Origin: a virus | UHGV virus genome: UHGV-0124967 | Strand: one strand, 5' to 3' | DNA length: 52,734 nucleotides | In this document: in pieces, positions 42,503-52,235 of the stretch | Numbering within the stretch: the stretch's first letter is position 1 | Layout of the letters: each line of letters begins with the position of its first letter | Notes under the pieces: generated by a model | Databases searched by the model: none | The model's input: the letters and a program-made list of their open reading frames with translations, nothing else | Told to the model about the DNA's origin: nothing | Translations under genes and position numbers: made by a program

Positions 42503-43150
42503 TTATGGCAGGTTTACGATCTTCGCATCAACCACCACGCCTATAATTTTTGATTCTGGATTCATAGGGATTGGCGGATACAGCGGATTGAGCGAACGTA
42601 AAAGCCTTTGACCTCCATCAATAATCAACTGTTTAAACGTCGGTATCTGCCATTCCTCAAGCTGGGCTATAACCAGTTTGCCGTCAATAGCTGGCGCGTG
42701 CGGGTCAACAAGTATCATCGTCCCCGCCGGGATGCTCAACCCCTGCGGCGCGTTCATTGATTCACCTTTGGCAACCAGCCAGTAACTGTCATCTGAACAA
42801 ATAACGCTAGTCGTAACGTGTCGTAATGCTGAACGCCTTGCGTCATCCATATTGTTTACTGTGTCCTTCCAGTCAATAACCGGGTAACTACCTAAATCAC
42901 GCGGCGGCACAGCCTGAAGTGTATTAGAAACAGAATCATCAATGACCATACCATCATGTGTAACAGTGAACTGCCGACGACCAAGCTCTCGCATAATCCG
43001 CGCAATATCTTCAAGATTTGGCTCGCGGCGACCGTTCAGCCAGTGTGACAGGTCGCCTTTAGTTATCCCCATGCGATCCGCTAGTGAATCCTGGCTCATG
43101 CCCTGCGCCCGCATGAGCTGCTTTGCTAAGTCATACCATTTTGTTTTCAT
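42503..43150 (-). CDS. CI-like repressor (HTH plus S24 LexA-like self-cleaving domain)
   Basis: 215 aa; N-terminal HTH (QDSLADRMGITKGDLSHWLNGRR), C-terminal GESM...K pattern. Confidence 0.85.
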   Translation of the reverse strand: MKTKWYDLAKQLMRAQGMSQDSLADRMGITKGDLSHWLNGRREPNLEDIARIMRELGRRQFTVTHDGMVIDDSVSNTLQAVPPRDLGSYPVIDWKDTVNNMDDARRSALRHVTTSVICSDDSYWLVAKGESMNAPQGLSIPAGTMILVDPHAPAIDGKLVIAQLEEWQIPTFKQLIIDGGQRLLRSLNPLYPPIPMNPESKIIGVVVDAKIVNLP

Positions 43151-43275: not shown

Positions 43276-43456
43276 GAAAAAGATAACGGAAGGCACAAAA
43301 AGGCACTTACCTTAAGCTCTTTAAAAATCCGGTGTCGCTGCGAAGCGAAAAACAAATATCACGCAACGGCGGGATCTGTTGAGCGGTCAGTCACTGCTAT
43401 CTAATGCTAATGGGATGCCCGCCCGCGCGTTCACTCTAACCATAGGAGAAAACACG

Positions 43457-43714
43457 ATGAGTATGCACATGATGAATGAAGTATGGAACGTAAAACTTAA
43501 CAGCCCGATTCAAAAACTTGTCTTAATGGCTCTGGCTGAAAAGGCAGATAACAAAGGACGGGTACATGATGCATCACGCAAAGAAGTAGCCGCAATGTGT
43601 GAACTTCCTGTTCATACGGTACATGATGCTTTCGCCGCGTTAATGGATAAAGGATTTGTTTGTCGTCTTGATGCATTCAGTGATGTCTATGTAGTGATGT
43701 TGCCGGAGGGATGA
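43457..43714 (+). CDS. HTH DNA-binding protein, 85 aa (first gene of rightward operon)
   Basis: ATG 43457 with AGGAG RBS (track ORF begins upstream at 43379); could be a Cro-like regulator or N-terminal module of the initiator. Confidence 0.55.
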   Translation: MSMHMMNEVWNVKLNSPIQKLVLMALAEKADNKGRVHDASRKEVAAMCELPVHTVHDAFAALMDKGFVCRLDAFSDVYVVMLPEG

Positions 43715-43717
43715 TCT

Positions 43718-44770
43718 ATGAAGTGGTTTAAGCATGACAGCGATGCGAACCGCGATGAAAAACTTCAAAACGTTTTGTTAGATTATGGCCTGGAAGGGTA
43801 CGGGCTTTATTGGTATTGCCTAGAGCTAATAACTTATGACGTAGATCAGCACAATCTAACTTTTGACCTACGACATGACGCAAGAATAATTGCGCGAAAC
43901 GTCGGATCTACTGAAAAACGTATAGAAGAAATGATGAAATACTTCATCGAAATTGGTTTGTTTGAATGTTCTCAAGGCCACATAACTTGTTTAAAGTTAT
44001 TGAAAAGGCTGGACCAATCAATGACTTCTAAAAGCGCTTACAGGGCCGCCATAAACACAGCGAAGGAGCAATTAAAATTAGAAAAGTTAATCAATCCAAC
44101 ACAAAAAGGTCATGATAGGGTCATGACCGGGTCAGGAAAGGGTCATGAATTAGAATTAGAAGTAGAAAAAGAAAGAGAAAAAGATATATACACTTCGTGT
44201 ATTGTCGAAAATGAACAAAAAATGGTCAATCAGGATGGCGTAAACGAAGCGGCATTGCGTTGCCTTGCCTTCTACAACGACAAGGCAGGATGCAAATGTC
44301 GTGATGCTAAGCCATTCGTAGAACTACTGACAGAAACAAAAACACGTAAAGCGTATACGGAGAATGAGATCACGTTAGTAATTGAGTGGGCTTTAACCCA
44401 ATGGCGTAGCCGTGGTGGAGTACCTAAGCCTATCAACATTTGCCGGGTAACTAAATTTGATGGGTATCTGACTGATGCTGAACAATGGCGCAAACTGTCA
44501 GCCACTGTAAACGCTGCCGACGTGGTGGAAGCATTTAACAGCACGTTTGACGGCCTGTTACCACCTGCCGAACTGGATCGGGATCTTGAACGCAAGATCT
44601 ATGCGTTCACTGACTACCTGAAAGACAAAAGCATTAACGGCTTTGTCGCCTACTTCGAAACGTTCAAAAACACGGCTTCAGATTTTTACTTCGGCGATGG
44701 CTTCACCGCGACACTTGATTTCCTGCTTAAACCAAAAACGCTACGTGATACGCGCGCTGGCGTTCTTTGA
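43718..44770 (+). CDS. putative replication initiator / replisome organiser with internal origin
   Basis: 350 aa; GGAGGG RBS; iteron array lies inside the coding sequence, as in lambda O-type initiators. Confidence 0.6.
   Translation: MKWFKHDSDANRDEKLQNVLLDYGLEGYGLYWYCLELITYDVDQHNLTFDLRHDARIIARNVGSTEKRIEEMMKYFIEIGLFECSQGHITCLKLLKRLDQSMTSKSAYRAAINTAKEQLKLEKLINPTQKGHDRVMTGSGKGHELELEVEKEREKDIYTSCIVENEQKMVNQDGVNEAALRCLAFYNDKAGCKCRDAKPFVELLTETKTRKAYTENEITLVIEWALTQWRSRGGVPKPINICRVTKFDGYLTDAEQWRKLSATVNAADVVEAFNSTFDGLLPPAELDRDLERKIYAFTDYLKDKSINGFVAYFETFKNTASDFYFGDGFTATLDFLLKPKTLRDTRAGVL
44108..44200. repeat. putative origin of replication: four iterons plus AT-rich region
   Basis: GGTCATGA 44108-44115, GGGTCATGA 44118-44126, GGGTCAGGA 44129-44137, GGGTCATGA 44140-44148 (about 11-bp phasing), then an A/T-rich run. 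Confidence 0.55.
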
Positions 44771-44903: not shown

Positions 44904-45005
44904 ATGGACGGTAAACACGTTTTCGCCCTGGCTTTTGCCATCGCTGCGGCAATCGATGTTAACGTCGCCTTGTTCGGCGGTCTGTACCTGCTAATCAATC
45001 CATAA
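44904..45005 (+). CDS. putative small membrane peptide, 33 aa
   Basis: ATG 44904 with GAGGAT RBS; MDGKHVFALAFAIAAAIDVNVALFGGLYLLINP. Confidence 0.3.
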   Translation: MDGKHVFALAFAIAAAIDVNVALFGGLYLLINP

Positions 45006-45145
45006 CCTACCTACCATTCTGTAAATCGAAAATTAGCCACCTGATGGCGCCTCTGACGCAATAAGACACTGCAACCCGTGCAAATGGGTTACGCGGTGGT
45101 TTTTTGCATTGTAGCGCGTCTGAGGCGTTTTAAGGAGTTGGAACG

Positions 45146-45646
45146 ATGCGCAAGTTAACACACGAAGAACACATCACAGATATAGCCAAAGTTAACACTT
45201 ATGTTGAAGTATTGGGAAAAATTAAGAACCATAGAGATAAAGTCCCGTGCCGCTGCAAGATCTGTAGTCATGAGTGGTCTGCCAGGCCTTGCAACCTTAA
45301 AAGCGGGTACGGCTGTCCAAAATGCGCGAAATACGGTTTCCTTCGTCATGAGTATGGCAAACTTTACATCATGGTTGATGATCTGGAAGTGCCTACACAA
45401 ATGAAAATTGGGGTAAGTGTTCAGGAAAATAAACGAAGAAACGAGATATTAAAAAGCGCACATAAAGCAGGCGTTAGAATTCCTAATTTGCATATCGTGA
45501 AAACGTTAGAAGGGCCAACCGAAAATATACATGAACTAGAAAACACGATGCATAAGGCTTTTAGCAATTATAAAATTAACTTTCCTGTAAAATTTGATGG
45601 TAGCAATGAGTTTTTTATTACAGGCCGGAAGTATTCGACATGGTAG
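45146..45646 (+). CDS. zinc-ribbon plus T5orf172-like (GIY-YIG-like) domain protein
   Basis: 166 aa; AAGGAG RBS; CRCKICSHEW...CPKCAKYG, then KLYIMVDD...MKIGVSVQENKRRNEIL...NEFF. Confidence 0.55.
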   Translation: MRKLTHEEHITDIAKVNTYVEVLGKIKNHRDKVPCRCKICSHEWSARPCNLKSGYGCPKCAKYGFLRHEYGKLYIMVDDLEVPTQMKIGVSVQENKRRNEILKSAHKAGVRIPNLHIVKTLEGPTENIHELENTMHKAFSNYKINFPVKFDGSNEFFITGRKYSTW

Positions 45647-45715
45647 AAGAAGCATTTAAAGAGATTGTTTGCTGCCAATGAATATACAAAATGTAAAACC
45701 TGAGGATATAACATT

Positions 45716-46834
45716 ATGTGTCAAAGAAAGATTAGTGATGAACAGCTAATCACTGAACATAACAACGGTCTAACGTATAAACAGATCGCCGAAAAATACG
45801 GAATGGCAAAACGCAACGTCGAACGCCTGGGCGCACGGTTGGCGAAACGCGGTTTAATATCCACGCGTCGCGCGCCGGGTTTTGGCGTCAATGGTGAGTC
45901 ATTGCTCGTCGATAAGGATGGCAATGTGATTATGCGCTGGATTAAAACAGCCCGTGATCGCGATGAAATGGAAAGGCTAATGCAATCTGCTTGTGACGCC
46001 TTCACGGAAGAAATACCCCGCGCGGAGTCCGTGCCAGTGCCGGAAATTGATTTCCAAAAAAGCCTGGCCCTTTATCCGGTATTTGATCTGCATATCGGGG
46101 CGCTTGCTCATAAAGCTGAATGCGGCGATAGCTACGACACCGGGATCGCTGAGCGCGTGCTAAATGATTTCTTCGACTACGCGGTAGGCGCTGCACCGAT
46201 GTCTGAAAAAGCTGTTTTGCTGTTAGGAGGGGATGTGCTCCACACTGACGGACTGTTACCAGTGACGCCATCAAGTAATCACGTTTTGGATTGTGATTCA
46301 CGCTACGCAAAACTTGTTTACGTGGCGATCCGGTCGGTCAGGCGTGCTGTAGGTAAGATGTTGTTGAATCATAAGGATGTAGAAATTCAGGTGTTATCAG
46401 GTAATCACGACCAGTCAGGAATGATCTGGCTACGTGCGGCGCTGAAGGCTTTTTACGAAGATGAACCGCGCGTTACTGTTGATGTGTCACCTGCCATCGT
46501 CCACCACACACAGTACGGCAAAACATTCCTTGCATATCATCACGGTCATACTATCAAAAAACCTGACAATTTGTTGTCTGCCTGCGTCTCTGACTGGCGA
46601 GAAGACTTTGGCAAGTCTGCGGCGGTTTACGCTCATTGCGGGCACTGGCATCATCAACGGCTAATTGAATCATCGTTAGGCGTTGTTGAGTATCACGGCA
46701 CGTTAGCGGGTAAAGACGCTTACTCAACTAATGGCGGCTGGCGGTCACGTCGTATGGCAGCGGTGATTATTTACAGCCAGGATTATGGTGAGATCGGGCG
46801 CTTTGTTTATTACCCTGAATATTCCATTTTGTAA
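45716..46834 (+). CDS. HTH plus calcineurin-like metallophosphoesterase domain protein
   Basis: 372 aa; N-terminal HTH; phosphoesterase motifs DLHIG, GGDVLHTDG, GNHD, HHGH, GHWHH. Confidence 0.6.
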   Translation: MCQRKISDEQLITEHNNGLTYKQIAEKYGMAKRNVERLGARLAKRGLISTRRAPGFGVNGESLLVDKDGNVIMRWIKTARDRDEMERLMQSACDAFTEEIPRAESVPVPEIDFQKSLALYPVFDLHIGALAHKAECGDSYDTGIAERVLNDFFDYAVGAAPMSEKAVLLLGGDVLHTDGLLPVTPSSNHVLDCDSRYAKLVYVAIRSVRRAVGKMLLNHKDVEIQVLSGNHDQSGMIWLRAALKAFYEDEPRVTVDVSPAIVHHTQYGKTFLAYHHGHTIKKPDNLLSACVSDWREDFGKSAAVYAHCGHWHHQRLIESSLGVVEYHGTLAGKDAYSTNGGWRSRRMAAVIIYSQDYGEIGRFVYYPEYSIL

Positions 46835-46852
46835 ACCGGAGGTAATGACATA

Positions 46853-48274
46853 ATGGTAACTGAGCAGATAAACTCACTACTGCAGGAACGTGAAGCGTCA
46901 GTTATCGGCGGGCTGCTATTAGGCGGCCTCACTCCTAACGCGCAAGATGTTCTCGCTACGCTAGATCCTGAAGTGTTCACTATTCCGCTGTATAAGCGGG
47001 CGTTTGAAATTATCCGGGCGCAAGCCAGAAACAGGAATCTTATCGACGCGTTATTGGTTGGTGATGAGATTGGTAATGAAAACTTTGTACCGCTAATGCA
47101 AACGGCGCGATCGTGCCCTTCTGCTGCCAACCTGAAGGGATATGCACAGCTACTACGTGAAGAGCACCAGCGGCGGCAGATGTTGGAACTCATCGACGAT
47201 ATGCGCTACAAACTGGAAACTGGGACACTTGAGGTCGTCAAAGAGACGATGAAAGATTTTGATTCCCGGTATTCAAAATTAAAGGTAACAAAAGATCAGA
47301 TTATCCCGGTGCTGTTGCGCGATGCTGTCCAGGAATACACGGAAGTGCTAAGTAAACGCATGGAGTGTGGCGTGAACTCTGACAACATCAAAACAGGGAT
47401 TGACCCACTCGACGAAATGTTAGGCGGCATTAACGCTACTGATCTGGTGCTTATCGCCGGACGCCCAGGGTCTGGTAAATCGGCGTTGGCGTTGGCAATT
47501 GCCCGCGCGGCTGCTGAACGCCAATACCCTGGCGGAGAAGGTCAGCGGGTCGGCGTTTTGTTGTTCACGCTTGAAATGTCGCTCGATCAGATGACTGAAC
47601 GCGCTATCGCTGGCGCAGGGAACTTGTCAACGGATTGCTTACGTAATCCGGTAAAACTGGATGACGAAGGATGGGCGCACGTTGCCCAGGGAATGAACGC
47701 ACTTGCTGATCTCGATGTGTGGATTGTTGATGCATCACAGTTAACTGTCGAGGAAATACGCGCCACAACTGAACGAATGAAGCAGGATTATCCCAACCTG
47801 GGTATGGTAATGATTGACTACATCGGGTTAATGAAGCTGGCTAAGGCAGAACGTCACGATCTCGCTGTAGGGCAATTGTCATGGTCGTTGAAGATGATGG
47901 CGAAAGAATTGCGCGTACCAGTGTTGGCACTGGCGCAATTATCCCGCCGCGTTGAGGAACGACCAAACAAGCGCCCGAACAATTCTGATCTGCGTGATTC
48001 CGGTAATCTTGAACAGGACGCAGACCGGATCATCATGGTCTACCGCGACGGGTACTATGATGAACAGTCTGTTGCCCGCGAATATATGGAGATCATTGTT
48101 TCGAAAAACCGTCACGGGAAAACGGGGACTGTTTACCAGCGGTTTGACGACAACGGCAACATCTTACCATGCGACCAGGCCCGCGCGGCGTCAGCTTGCA
48201 TCCAGTCAATGCAACAACGTCCGTCTGCAAGCCGATTCTCACCACGAAACAACCAGAATAACGCATCTTTTTAA
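46853..48274 (+). CDS. replicative DNA helicase (DnaB family)
   Basis: 473 aa; Walker A GRPGSGKS, LFTLEMS, VMIDYIGLM, LAQLSRRVEERPNKRPNNSDLRDSGNLEQDADRIIMVYRD. Confidence 0.9.
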   Translation: MVTEQINSLLQEREASVIGGLLLGGLTPNAQDVLATLDPEVFTIPLYKRAFEIIRAQARNRNLIDALLVGDEIGNENFVPLMQTARSCPSAANLKGYAQLLREEHQRRQMLELIDDMRYKLETGTLEVVKETMKDFDSRYSKLKVTKDQIIPVLLRDAVQEYTEVLSKRMECGVNSDNIKTGIDPLDEMLGGINATDLVLIAGRPGSGKSALALAIARAAAERQYPGGEGQRVGVLLFTLEMSLDQMTERAIAGAGNLSTDCLRNPVKLDDEGWAHVAQGMNALADLDVWIVDASQLTVEEIRATTERMKQDYPNLGMVMIDYIGLMKLAKAERHDLAVGQLSWSLKMMAKELRVPVLALAQLSRRVEERPNKRPNNSDLRDSGNLEQDADRIIMVYRDGYYDEQSVAREYMEIIVSKNRHGKTGTVYQRFDDNGNILPCDQARAASACIQSMQQRPSASRFSPRNNQNNASF

Positions 48275-50573: not shown

Positions 50574-50803
50574 TGGATAAAACCGGGACAATCCTTCTTA
50601 GTCGCCCTGCCATCTGCCGGATGCTTGGGGGAATTAGCAGGGGAACGTTTTACTTATGGCGTAAAAAATGGGAACGGAACGGAACTCCGTTCCCCGACCC
50701 GGTTGACGTACTTGGGACCGGGCGTGGCGTTATGTACCGCTATCAGGACGTAATGCAGTTCTTTGATCGGATTGGTTTAACGTCAGCCAAAGATAACACA
50801 TAA
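50573..50803 (+). CDS. AlpA-family HTH regulator / putative excisionase
   Basis: 76 aa; LGGISRGTFYLWRKKWERNGTPFPDPVDVLGTGRGVMYRYQDVMQFF pattern; convergent with integrase 3' end. Confidence 0.65.
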   Translation: MDKTGTILLSRPAICRMLGGISRGTFYLWRKKWERNGTPFPDPVDVLGTGRGVMYRYQDVMQFFDRIGLTSAKDNT

Positions 50804-51958
50804 TCAGCAAACTTATTTAGTGCCTCCTTTTGTTCATCAAGATAATCATATTTGTCGTACACCGCCAGTATTCCCCTTAATGAATGGCCTAAGATCTTTT
50901 CTGCAATATGTACCGGAACACCTATAGCTGAAAGGTGTGTCCGGCACGTCCTGCGGAGGTCGTGACAGGACCATGATTTACCGCCCATCCTTTTACGCAC
51001 GAATATTGCAGCTACTTTTATCACTGATACGTTTACTGGCCTGTTGCCGCCGTTAATCACTGGCGGGAATACATAATCATACTCATGGGAGGTTAAAACC
51101 TCCCTGAGCATTTTTATCGACAAGTCAGATAATCCCCGCCTGATTTCACTTCTTGTCTTCGCCACCGCCGCCGGAACGGTCCATACACCGTTGTCCAGAT
51201 CTAGGTGTTCCCTTCTCATTTTCTGCAATTCACCAACCCTGCACCCGGTTAGCAATAATAGCTTTAAGGCTATTTTGTTCTGCGGATAGATCTGCGAACT
51301 GTCTACCGTGCGCCAGAAGTGGCCTATCTCCTCACATGAAAGGTAACGCTCCCCCCACCGCATAATGCTCGCCAACGTCAGCTACACGGATATTGTTTAT
51401 CGCCGTGTTAGTCATTAGCCCACGCCTGATTGCGCTGTTAACGATGATTTTCATTCGCTTCAATATCAAACCAGCCGTAACCGCGTGACCCGCCGCAGTG
51501 ATCTCGCCAAATATATCCATCCACTGTTTTGTCGTTACGTCGTCAGCTATGTAGTCGCCGTACTTGTTGACTACGTGGCGCATCAATGCGCTTTTGACTT
51601 CTTTATATGCCACCAGCTTAATGACGTTCGGCAGGGATAGATAGTCTTCCACTACGTCGGATATAGATCGCTTGCCCTGCTCAAAGGCTATGGCCTGCTT
51701 TACGCACAGTGCCGGATTCTTCCCTTTCGTAAGCAACTCCCTGTATTCAGACACCGCATAGCGGGCGTCTTTCAGACTCATTTTCCCGTATTCACCGATC
51801 TTCATTCGCACTGGCTTACCGTTGAATCTGTAACGGTACTGGAAAGTAATTTTCCCTTTTGGGTTTATCCTGGCTGACAGGCCATCACGATCAGCTATCT
51901 CGCTTGGACCGTCGTATGGCTTGTTGGCGATGGCCCTTAACCTGGTATCCGTAAGCAT
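50743..51958 (-). pseudogene. tyrosine integrase disrupted by a frameshift
   Basis: Two overlapping frames (51332..51958 N-terminal, 50743..51375 C-terminal with HDLRR, LGHS, AVYDKYDY motifs). They meet at a C6 run (51351-51356); deleting one base would give continuous ...GEHYAVGERYLSCEEIGHFW.... Could be a real pseudogene or a sequencing error. Confidence 0.7.
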
Positions 51959-51972
51959 GTTGCCCCCCCATT

Positions 51973-52235
51973 TTTGGTCACGTTTTGGTACACAGTTTTT
52001 GTTGTACGGATATTAACAGTATTGTACGGAATTAGAAACGTGATGCCGGGTTTTGGTTACAACTTTATGATTTTTAAGTGATTTTATTGACGTGATTGAA
52101 CGGAGTTAAACGCCTTTAAACATAGTGCGCTGGTCCTGTCTGGAATGATTAGTGTAACGAATAATCATTTATAAAACATAATGTTATGTTGTTTTTGATT
52201 TTAGTTTTTGATATTTGGTCACTATTTGGTACACA
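51973..52235. repeat. two copies of a ~22-bp direct repeat flanking an AT-rich region; candidate integrase arm sites / att region
   Basis: TTTGGTCACGTTTTGGTACACA (51975-51996) and TTTGGTCACTATTTGGTACACA (52214-52235); each is itself a tandem of TTTGGT(C/A)AC. Confidence 0.35.

Follow-up and report, generated by a model that had tools for sequence, protein, structure and literature searches.

Must the genes that lie between a phage replication initiator and its helicase be a helicase loader and a primase? This question is raised by the UHGV virus genome UHGV-0124967, a stretch of 52,734 nucleotides called here the window. DNA searches place it in the mEp021/"mEpimmI" group of Nus-dependent, non-lambdoid temperate coliphages; the matches comprise seven isolated phages, including mEp021, mEp013, mEp515 and MagusPhagus, together with prophages in 35 complete E. 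coli genomes. The genome paper on the mEp021 group (PMC11893012) does not discuss the two genes in question. Both lie between an initiator of the Lin1244_N/O-like type and a DnaB-family helicase, exactly where an earlier sequence-only reading had put them:

45146-45646, + strand: open reading frame (ORF) of 166 amino acids (aa), from the ORF list, coordinates exact
45716-46834, + strand: ORF of 372 aa, from the ORF list, coordinates exact

Do these two genes serve replication together? The somewhat favored answer is that the first belongs to a mobile cassette of the homing type and the second is a core, DNA-directed helix-turn-helix (HTH) phosphoesterase, neither of them being a loader or a primase. 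Taken singly, the 166-aa gene most probably falls in the T5orf172/GIY-YIG homing-endonuclease class as a free-standing member, and there is little doubt that the 372-aa protein, judged by its residues, is an active HTH-phosphoesterase of PHROG 704.

The 372-aa protein aligns over residues 4-368 with positions 2-387 of the 390-position profile phrog_704, "DNA repair exonuclease" (E 2.5e-139). Its modeled layout is an HTH at residues ~8-44, a beta-hairpin at 58-78, a helix at 79-98, and a phosphoesterase core at ~114-365. All five motifs of the calcineurin-like enzymes (DxH, GD, GNH(D/E), H, and GHxH) are present, and they are invariant in 39 close homologues. Over a broader set of 77 members sharing 28-56% identity, D124/H126, G172/D173, N230/H231, H276, and H312 are invariant and H310 is nearly so. 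The AlphaFold model (pLDDT 77.5) has the beta-sandwich fold of phosphoesterases, and its best matches in a fold search are Mre11/SbcD, the DP1 subunit of PolD, and polymerase B-subunits. The earlier proposal of an HTH followed by a full set of calcineurin-like motifs is thus borne out, both by the five motifs conserved across the 77 members and by the fold. A further group of near-invariant residues, H176, D178, D192, D194, and R196, is specific to the family and lies in a loop that AlphaFold models poorly.

Pfam gives a fainter picture, with weak HTH matches only (residues ~11-66) and no match of the 372-aa protein to Metallophos or Metallophos_2 at E<=0.1. Among the distant members these two models match weakly in 24/77 and 16/77, respectively, and assorted HTH models match as well. 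A fold search of BFVD returned only uncharacterized viral homologues with automatic names.

What, then, does this protein do? As its catalytic residues are strictly conserved, it should be an enzyme and not a pure regulator. A DNA-directed phosphodiesterase, either a nuclease or an end-processing enzyme, is the likeliest kind, because of the conserved HTH, the Mre11/SbcD/DP1-like fold, the GNHD and D-x-x-H motifs, and the neighboring genes; the D-x-x-H motif we take to resemble the GDLFH of Mre11. In the proposed mechanism, a binuclear metal centre would be tethered to DNA by the N-terminal HTH, and the enzyme would act as an Mre11/SbcD-like phosphodiesterase that processes DNA ends or structures in the DNA metabolism of the phage. 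This specific role as a DNA nuclease or end-processing enzyme is more tentative than the family assignment, and its chances fall a little short of even. A Ser/Thr protein phosphatase of the PPP type (lambda phosphatase/NinI) is disfavored, since GDVLHTDG and GNHD stand in the place of GDxxDRG and GNHE.

Could the substrate be something other than DNA? The enzyme might be a phosphodiesterase of small molecules or RNA ends (cyclic (oligo)nucleotides, Ap4A, or 2',3'-cyclic phosphate ends) that serves host takeover or counter-defense, with the HTH used for autoregulation or localization. This is improbable: the DNA-binding HTH at the N-terminus is conserved across the family, and the gene is a core gene with a fixed position within each phage genus, unlike typical accessory anti-defense genes. 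Neither PADLOC nor any other defense-related search gave a match for the phosphoesterase. The counter-defense use suggested by the sequence-only reading finds no support here. The wording "nuclease or phosphatase activities" of that reading remains apt as a pair of predicted classes.

PHROG 704 has matches in 2046 of 50,697 phage records (~4%), and at 50% clustering (E<=1e-3) there are 5,554 representatives, nearly all of 370-420 aa and of the same architecture. Members from T1-like Drexlerviridae, Jerseyvirus, Kagunavirus, and other siphoviruses share with the window protein the series HTH, beta-hairpin, and phosphoesterase, the same invariant motifs, and 39-66% identity. Their genomic settings differ from the one seen here, in a temperate phage and between initiator and DnaB. 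The T1-like homologue comes after a Dam methylase and before a holin, in genomes whose helicases are SF2 and DUF3987 types and not DnaB; in Jerseyvirus and Kagunavirus tail genes enclose the small island to which it belongs; in Vibrio and Rhodobacter phages its surroundings are genes for lysis and the head; and in PEAT2 it precedes the terminase genes. The homologues from T1-like, Jersey-like, Kaguna-like, Vibrio, and Rhodobacter phages have no DnaB next to them. For the family as a whole, ~2,000 phage genomes have the gene at places that bear no relation to a DnaB helicase, which speaks against a loader-like role.

Across genera, the neighbors include DNA-metabolism genes, an SSB, HNH genes, and PNK-type enzymes. 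In Kagunavirus the homologue is directly followed by a PNK-type HAD phosphatase (PF25109, phrog_415) and then by a P-loop kinase (phrog_139). These neighbors hint at the processing of nucleic-acid ends, and the three genes could possibly form an end-processing trio; an example is found in Escherichia phage L AB-2017 (locus L096, 4001-6170). The annotations attached to the family are automatic labels only, such as "DNA repair exonuclease", "DNA polymerase II small subunit", "oxidoreductase", and "putative phosphoesterase".

With this distribution in hand, the question of the loader can be faced. The order of the early-right operon is winged-HTH gene, Lin1244/O-like initiator, spacer, a first insertion slot, HTH-phosphoesterase, a second slot, and DnaB helicase. 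The genes that frame the two ORFs are:

42503-43150, - strand: cI/LexA-type repressor, divergent, on the 5' side of the replication module
43379-43714, + strand: small winged-HTH protein, first gene of the replication module (phrog_4617, "replication initiation protein", E 6.6e-22)
43718-44770, + strand: Lin1244_N/O-like replication initiator, 350 aa (PF14297, E 6.9e-11; phrog_20981, E 4.9e-156)
46853-48274, + strand: DnaB-family replicative helicase (PF03796, E 4.1e-76; PF00772, E 8.9e-12; phrog_19)

The initiator also matches phrog_428 and phrog_345, both of replication initiation.

Profiles of loaders (DnaC/DnaI, lambda P, SPP1 G39P) and of primases (DnaG, AEP) in Pfam, PHROGs, NCBIfam, and PADLOC match neither the 166-aa nor the 372-aa protein, and an assignment of this kind, which the sequence-only reading had named as the outcome that would speak against it, was not obtained for either of them. 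The expectation that a loader or primase belongs at this position, on which that reading was built, has itself a weak foundation. P22, with its gene 18 initiator and gene 12 DnaB-type helicase, represents an established minimal arrangement that lacks both. The complete genome of MagusPhagus carries annotated Erf, SSB, Abc2, NinB, and NinG and has no primase or loader annotated. Moreover, a global survey of viral replication genes (PMC4889955) found that helicases dominate the replication proteins encoded by phages. For these three reasons, the absence of a loader or primase is not anomalous. The module resembles those of the P22 type (gene 18 and gene 12) and of the SPP1 type (G38P-G39P-G40P) in that an initiator is followed by a phage DnaB-family helicase, with no phage primase. 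It differs from them in the HTH-phosphoesterase and the two cassette slots that intervene, and the intervening gene is unrelated to G39P, lambda P, and DnaC.

For the HTH-phosphoesterase, the roles of primase and of dedicated DnaB loader are both excluded, the latter because homologues sit away from any DnaB in T1-like, Jersey-like, and Vibrio phages. The gene contexts in other genera likewise led to the rejection of a partner specific for DnaB. Might it still be an accessory of the replisome or of initiation peculiar to this operon, either as a loader substitute that bridges initiator and DnaB or as a DP1-like exonuclease working with the host polymerase? This is very unlikely: homologues with 44-66% identity are core genes in T1-like phages and Guernseyvirinae, beside Dam methylase, lysis, or tail genes and along with non-DnaB helicases; strictly conserved catalytic motifs are not required of an adaptor; and modules of the P22 type are generally known to work without a loader. 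A bolder version has only a slim chance, namely that the protein is an undescribed, widely distributed, DNA-tethered Mre11/DP1-like nuclease independent of Rad50, which in mEp021-type phages works directly with initiator and DnaB in origin or fork processing or as a loader substitute. If true, it would explain why homing-endonuclease slots flank the phosphoesterase gene as they flank essential genes.

The 166-aa protein is of a different nature. It scores above the Pfam cutoffs for T5orf172 (PF10544, 25.9 bits, cutoff 20), MUG113 (PF13455, 22.7 bits, cutoff 22.3), and the CapR homology domain (PF21817, 24.6 bits, cutoff 24.2), and just below that for the treble-clef domain DUF4379 (PF14311, 23.2 bits, cutoff 24.5); among the PHROGs it matches the endonuclease family phrog_681 (E 1.2e-31). 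A CapR-type zinc finger occupies residues ~18-62, with the single CxxC-x16-CxxC pattern at 37-60, and a T5orf172/GIY-YIG nuclease domain occupies residues ~70-158, with the alpha/beta fold of GIY-YIG enzymes in the model. The zinc-ribbon with a T5orf172/GIY-YIG-like C-terminus that had been read from the sequence is therefore correct. In an alignment of 19 homologues, R97, H136, and E155 (in "NEFF") are invariant; Y74, in the L-Y-I motif, is conserved among those homologues that reach this position, without being invariant across the alignment. R97, E155, and Y74 may correspond to catalytic residues of I-TevI, with E155 lying in a low-confidence part of the model. The identity to I-TevI of T4 is 16%, the second Tyr of YIG is replaced here (K-I-G), the nuclease domain is C-terminal instead of N-terminal, and the gene is free-standing, not intron-encoded. 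Among solved structures, a sequence search with the 166-aa protein found nothing beyond a marginal DUF4379 match, and PADLOC gave a weak match of the T5orf172 domain to PDC-S57 and nothing else.

The site that the gene occupies is polymorphic. A total of 47 related loci were surveyed, consisting of the window, the isolates, E. coli prophages, and IMG/VR contigs found via the phosphoesterase gene. The two slots are:

45119-45675, + strand: cassette, the insert of slot 1; ~10 bp stand in its place at the empty sites of MagusPhagus and E. coli 09-00049 (blastn junctions, alignment)
slot 1 in 18/47 loci: zinc-finger/T5orf172 family, 166 to 495 aa, with 1, 2, 3, or 6 fingers
slot 1 in 16/47 loci: Rha/KilAC-type gene (Pfam)
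slot 1 in 5/47 loci: gene of the DUF559 type, Vsr-like endonuclease fold (Pfam)
slot 1 in 8/47 loci: empty
46835-46852: slot 2, from the phosphoesterase gene to dnaB; 18 bp and empty here, a ~539-bp cassette in 5/47 loci

Even the cultured phages differ, slot 1 being empty in MagusPhagus and holding one finger in mEp013 and six in mEp021. The HTH-phosphoesterase gene is present in every mEp021-type locus examined and is thus a core gene of the group. The two genes, treated together as one group of activities in the sequence-only reading, are therefore no functional pair: the cassette is absent from 8/47 loci and unrelated genes replace it in 21/47, while the phosphoesterase is core.

Slot 2 has its own guest, an HNH_3+AP2 endonuclease of the homing type in mEp021, in mEp515, and in three metagenomic relatives; among these loci it lies at 5937-6440 of L002 and 5174-5728 of L003. 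The records of mEp515 and mEp021 label the gene a homing or HNH endonuclease. The phosphoesterase gene is in this way bracketed by two nuclease slots.

How did the window come by its copy of the cassette? At 99-100% identity, its finger and nuclease domain match finger 3 and the nuclease of a three-finger allele (E. coli M1/5, L013-L017), and the N-terminal MRKLTHEE matches finger 1 of that allele. The joining of a finger-1 N-terminus to finger 3 and nuclease indicates recombination between repeats within the "LTHEE" stretch, and the window allele, as its sequence attests, is a repeat-deleted derivative of the three-repeat allele. The surrounding DNA is a mosaic. In a 200-bp identity profile, L027, L037, and L039 agree with the window at 100% upstream of the cassette and at ~75% within it; against L013-L017 the values are 90-99% upstream and 100% from the cassette onward. 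Two sites record this history:

45047-45049: recombination crossover, L027-type on the left and L013-type on the right, in a three-way alignment; 70 bp upstream of the cassette
45611-45616, + strand: T6 homopolymer, site of a -1 frameshift; T7 in a 99%-identical relative (alignment with M1/5, mEp021, and mEp013)

The position of the crossover fits the idea that nuclease genes occupy boundaries of genetic exchange. The second site means that the 166-aa frame is not intact and is the C-terminally frameshifted form of a 178-aa protein, whose native stop would be at 45679-45681. The last 21 residues are exchanged for 9: the relatives end "...NEFFYYRPEVFDMVEEAFKEIVCCQ" and the window "...NEFFITGRKYSTW".

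Is the 166-aa ORF then a dead remnant, or its truncation a sequencing artifact, the ORF itself being without activity in this genome? We regard this as less likely than not. The -1 indel lies in a T-run and is seen against a 99%-identical allele; a +1 in a C-run divides the integrase gene of the window, and the third indel is also in a homopolymer; no identical 166-aa protein was found in a collection of 5.8 billion proteins. In the other direction, the frameshift falls 3' of all catalytic positions conserved in the 19-homologue alignment, and if it is an artifact the true gene is the intact 178-aa form. As all three indels, one in the T-run and two in C-runs, are in homopolymers, sequencing error is as plausible as decay, and the truncation may be either.

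The integrase itself deserves a word. The tyrosine integrase gene (50743-51958, - strand) has one C too many in the C-run at 51351, which breaks it into two ORFs (208 aa and 210 aa), and a second C-run indel is at 51963; both are relative to a 99.7%-identical prophage of E. coli M15.

The features of the cassette gene recall a class already described. Barth, Dunham, and Seed (PMC10448857) recognized as homing endonucleases the proteins in which CapR/DUF723/DUF4379-type zinc fingers, arranged as "beads on a string", accompany a T5orf172 nuclease; they reported variable presence between isolates, frameshifts, in-frame deletions of repeats, and clustering by essential genes, including those of the replisome. 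The gp174 and gp165 proteins of ICP1 are T5orf172 homing endonucleases with CapR-type repeats, and PLE CapR and ICP1 Odn are derivatives of this kind (PMC10448857; PMC8263062). The window gene shares with the ICP1 endonucleases the N-terminal CxxC..CxxC module or modules with a C-terminal T5orf172 domain (a GIY-YIG subfamily), the patchy presence in near-identical phages, the intragenic change in repeat number, the frameshifts, and a position beside replisome genes, at a mosaic boundary. It differs in its phage, a temperate siphovirus that infects E. coli and belongs to the mEp021 group, and in its single finger and frameshifted C-terminus; its cleavage and homing are predicted.

On this basis, a mechanism can be proposed. 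The CapR-type zinc finger would give recognition of a DNA sequence and the GIY-YIG-like domain would cut. During mixed infection, or when prophages recombine, the nuclease would cleave cassette-less genomes near the slot; repair would copy the cassette with its flanks into the cut genome; and through such homing the slot would become a boundary of genetic exchange.

Homing is not the only career open to such a gene. It may have been domesticated, either as a sequence-specific repressor, like PLE CapR, or as a nuclease against competing phages or satellites, like ICP1 Odn, and changes in finger number would then be the trace of an arms race over target specificity. Both kinds of domestication are published (PMC10448857), and the gene brings with it the CapR-homology and T5orf172 domains, its retention in 18/47 loci with 1 to 6 repeats, and a place in the early operon with its own ribosome-binding site. 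We nevertheless hold it to be rather unlikely: the gene is absent or replaced in 29/47 otherwise near-identical loci, the C-terminal frameshifts at the same T-run in the window copy and in the family members P0138 and P0164 look like decay, and no candidate target, be it a satellite or a competitor, has been identified.

The combination of a mobile homing-type gene with a core DNA-directed phosphoesterase also has several points to answer. On the cassette side, no target site was identified for the nuclease, and its cleavage and homing are predicted activities; the model is unreliable from residue 143 on; and in the window copy the frame shifts directly behind the putative catalytic Glu. Slot 1 also accepts the non-nuclease Rha/KilAC gene and may simply be a hotspot, downstream of a terminator, for insertions in general. 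Furthermore, a single mosaic breakpoint is no proof of exchange driven by an endonuclease. On the phosphoesterase side, sequence searches with the single protein and with the 39-sequence profile found no phosphoesterase among solved structures, only weak HTH matches, and no experimental paper on the family was found in the literature on T1-like phages and replication modules. The comparison with Mre11/SbcD is also incomplete, since the model has no capping domain and no Rad50/SbcC-like gene is annotated in the related complete genome of MagusPhagus. The likeness to PolD DP1 and the eukaryotic polymerase B-subunits has similar limits, as the window protein lacks an OB domain, carries an N-terminal HTH instead, and has no polymerase partner encoded with it.

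Another question concerns the 375 bp between the initiator and the cassette gene, described at first as a structured gap. The structure is there, yet a gap it is not, since it holds a conserved small ORF and a terminator-like hairpin and is present with or without a gene in the slot. The spacer is backbone, 88-92% conserved in every locus regardless of the occupant of slot 1. Its elements are:

44904-45005, + strand: 33-codon hydrophobic ORF (MDGKHVFALAFAIAAAIDVNVALFGGLYLLINP) with a ribosome-binding site; same length in ~44/48 related loci
45046-45129, + strand: structured RNA/DNA element, an outer inverted repeat around a terminator-like hairpin
45067-45098, + strand: terminator-like hairpin with a U-run (45101-45106) behind it; conserved throughout the related loci

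The small ORF is annotated as a coding sequence in MagusPhagus, mEp515, and mEp013, and probably encodes a small membrane peptide. Its position 18 is Asp in the window alone and Ala in all the others.

The long-range inverted repeat noticed earlier (45047-45059/45113-45126) exists, and its pairing is better given as 45046-45059 with 45116-45129, with one mismatch. The 111 nt from 45025 to 45135 fold with -44.5 kcal/mol (z = -4.0), a value equaled by 0/200 shuffled sequences. The inner hairpin shows one compensatory pair, in 3/31 sequences, which is covariation too slight to claim a functional RNA; the element has no match in Rfam at E<=1. A simple terminator scan of the + strand missed the inner hairpin because of a bulge, and no record annotates it. 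By analogy, its core may be a tR1-like terminator of a Nus/N-dependent operon, read through by an N-like antiterminator of the phage; the annotation of MagusPhagus includes both N-like and Q-like antiterminators.

Is the inverted repeat the end of the cassette or of a transposon? This was considered and rejected: the left arm and the inner hairpin belong to the backbone of every locus; two unrelated cassettes have the right arm in common, and the others lack it. The right outer arm (GCGTCTGAGGCG) occurs only in loci with a T5orf172 or DUF559 cassette and is missing from empty and Rha-type loci. The T5orf172 and DUF559 cassettes, although unrelated, have in common a 5' leader (GCGTCTGAGGCGTT[T/A]TA) that is this right arm, as a comparison of window positions 45119-45135 with L005, L025, L029, L033, and L035 shows. 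The empty and Rha-type slots read TTTACGGA(A/G)AA instead.

A few observations concern the rest of the module and the integration site. The function of initiation is apparently split between the small winged-HTH protein and the separate Lin1244_N protein, whose genes are spaced by 3 bp (43379-44770, + strand). The winged-HTH gene is annotated in MagusPhagus and mEp021, with a shorter start in the annotation of the relatives. The central part of the Lin1244 gene is a different allele in mEp021 and mEp013, and the identity profile drops out across 43500-44300. E. coli prophages cease to resemble the window at its position 52144 (50700-52144 compared), and those genomes run on into dgcM, from which it follows that the integration site of the group adjoins dgcM; the window itself does not extend into this host gene.

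As for what these findings mean, the cassette gene joins a described class of mobile T5orf172 nuclease genes and the phosphoesterase joins a family that is already catalogued, PHROG 704. The cassette offers a clean E. coli example of a pattern documented mainly in the Vibrio phage ICP1, that is, T5orf172 zinc-finger nucleases at boundaries of exchange beside replication genes, and the natural alleles with one, two, three, and six fingers, together with cultured isolates that lack the cassette, allow direct crosses. For the phosphoesterase, thousands of annotations would be corrected once its substrate is determined in a temperate coliphage open to experiment. The main value of this locus lies in making both questions directly testable, since phages that carry or lack the cassette are in culture and the phosphoesterase comes with a tractable temperate host.

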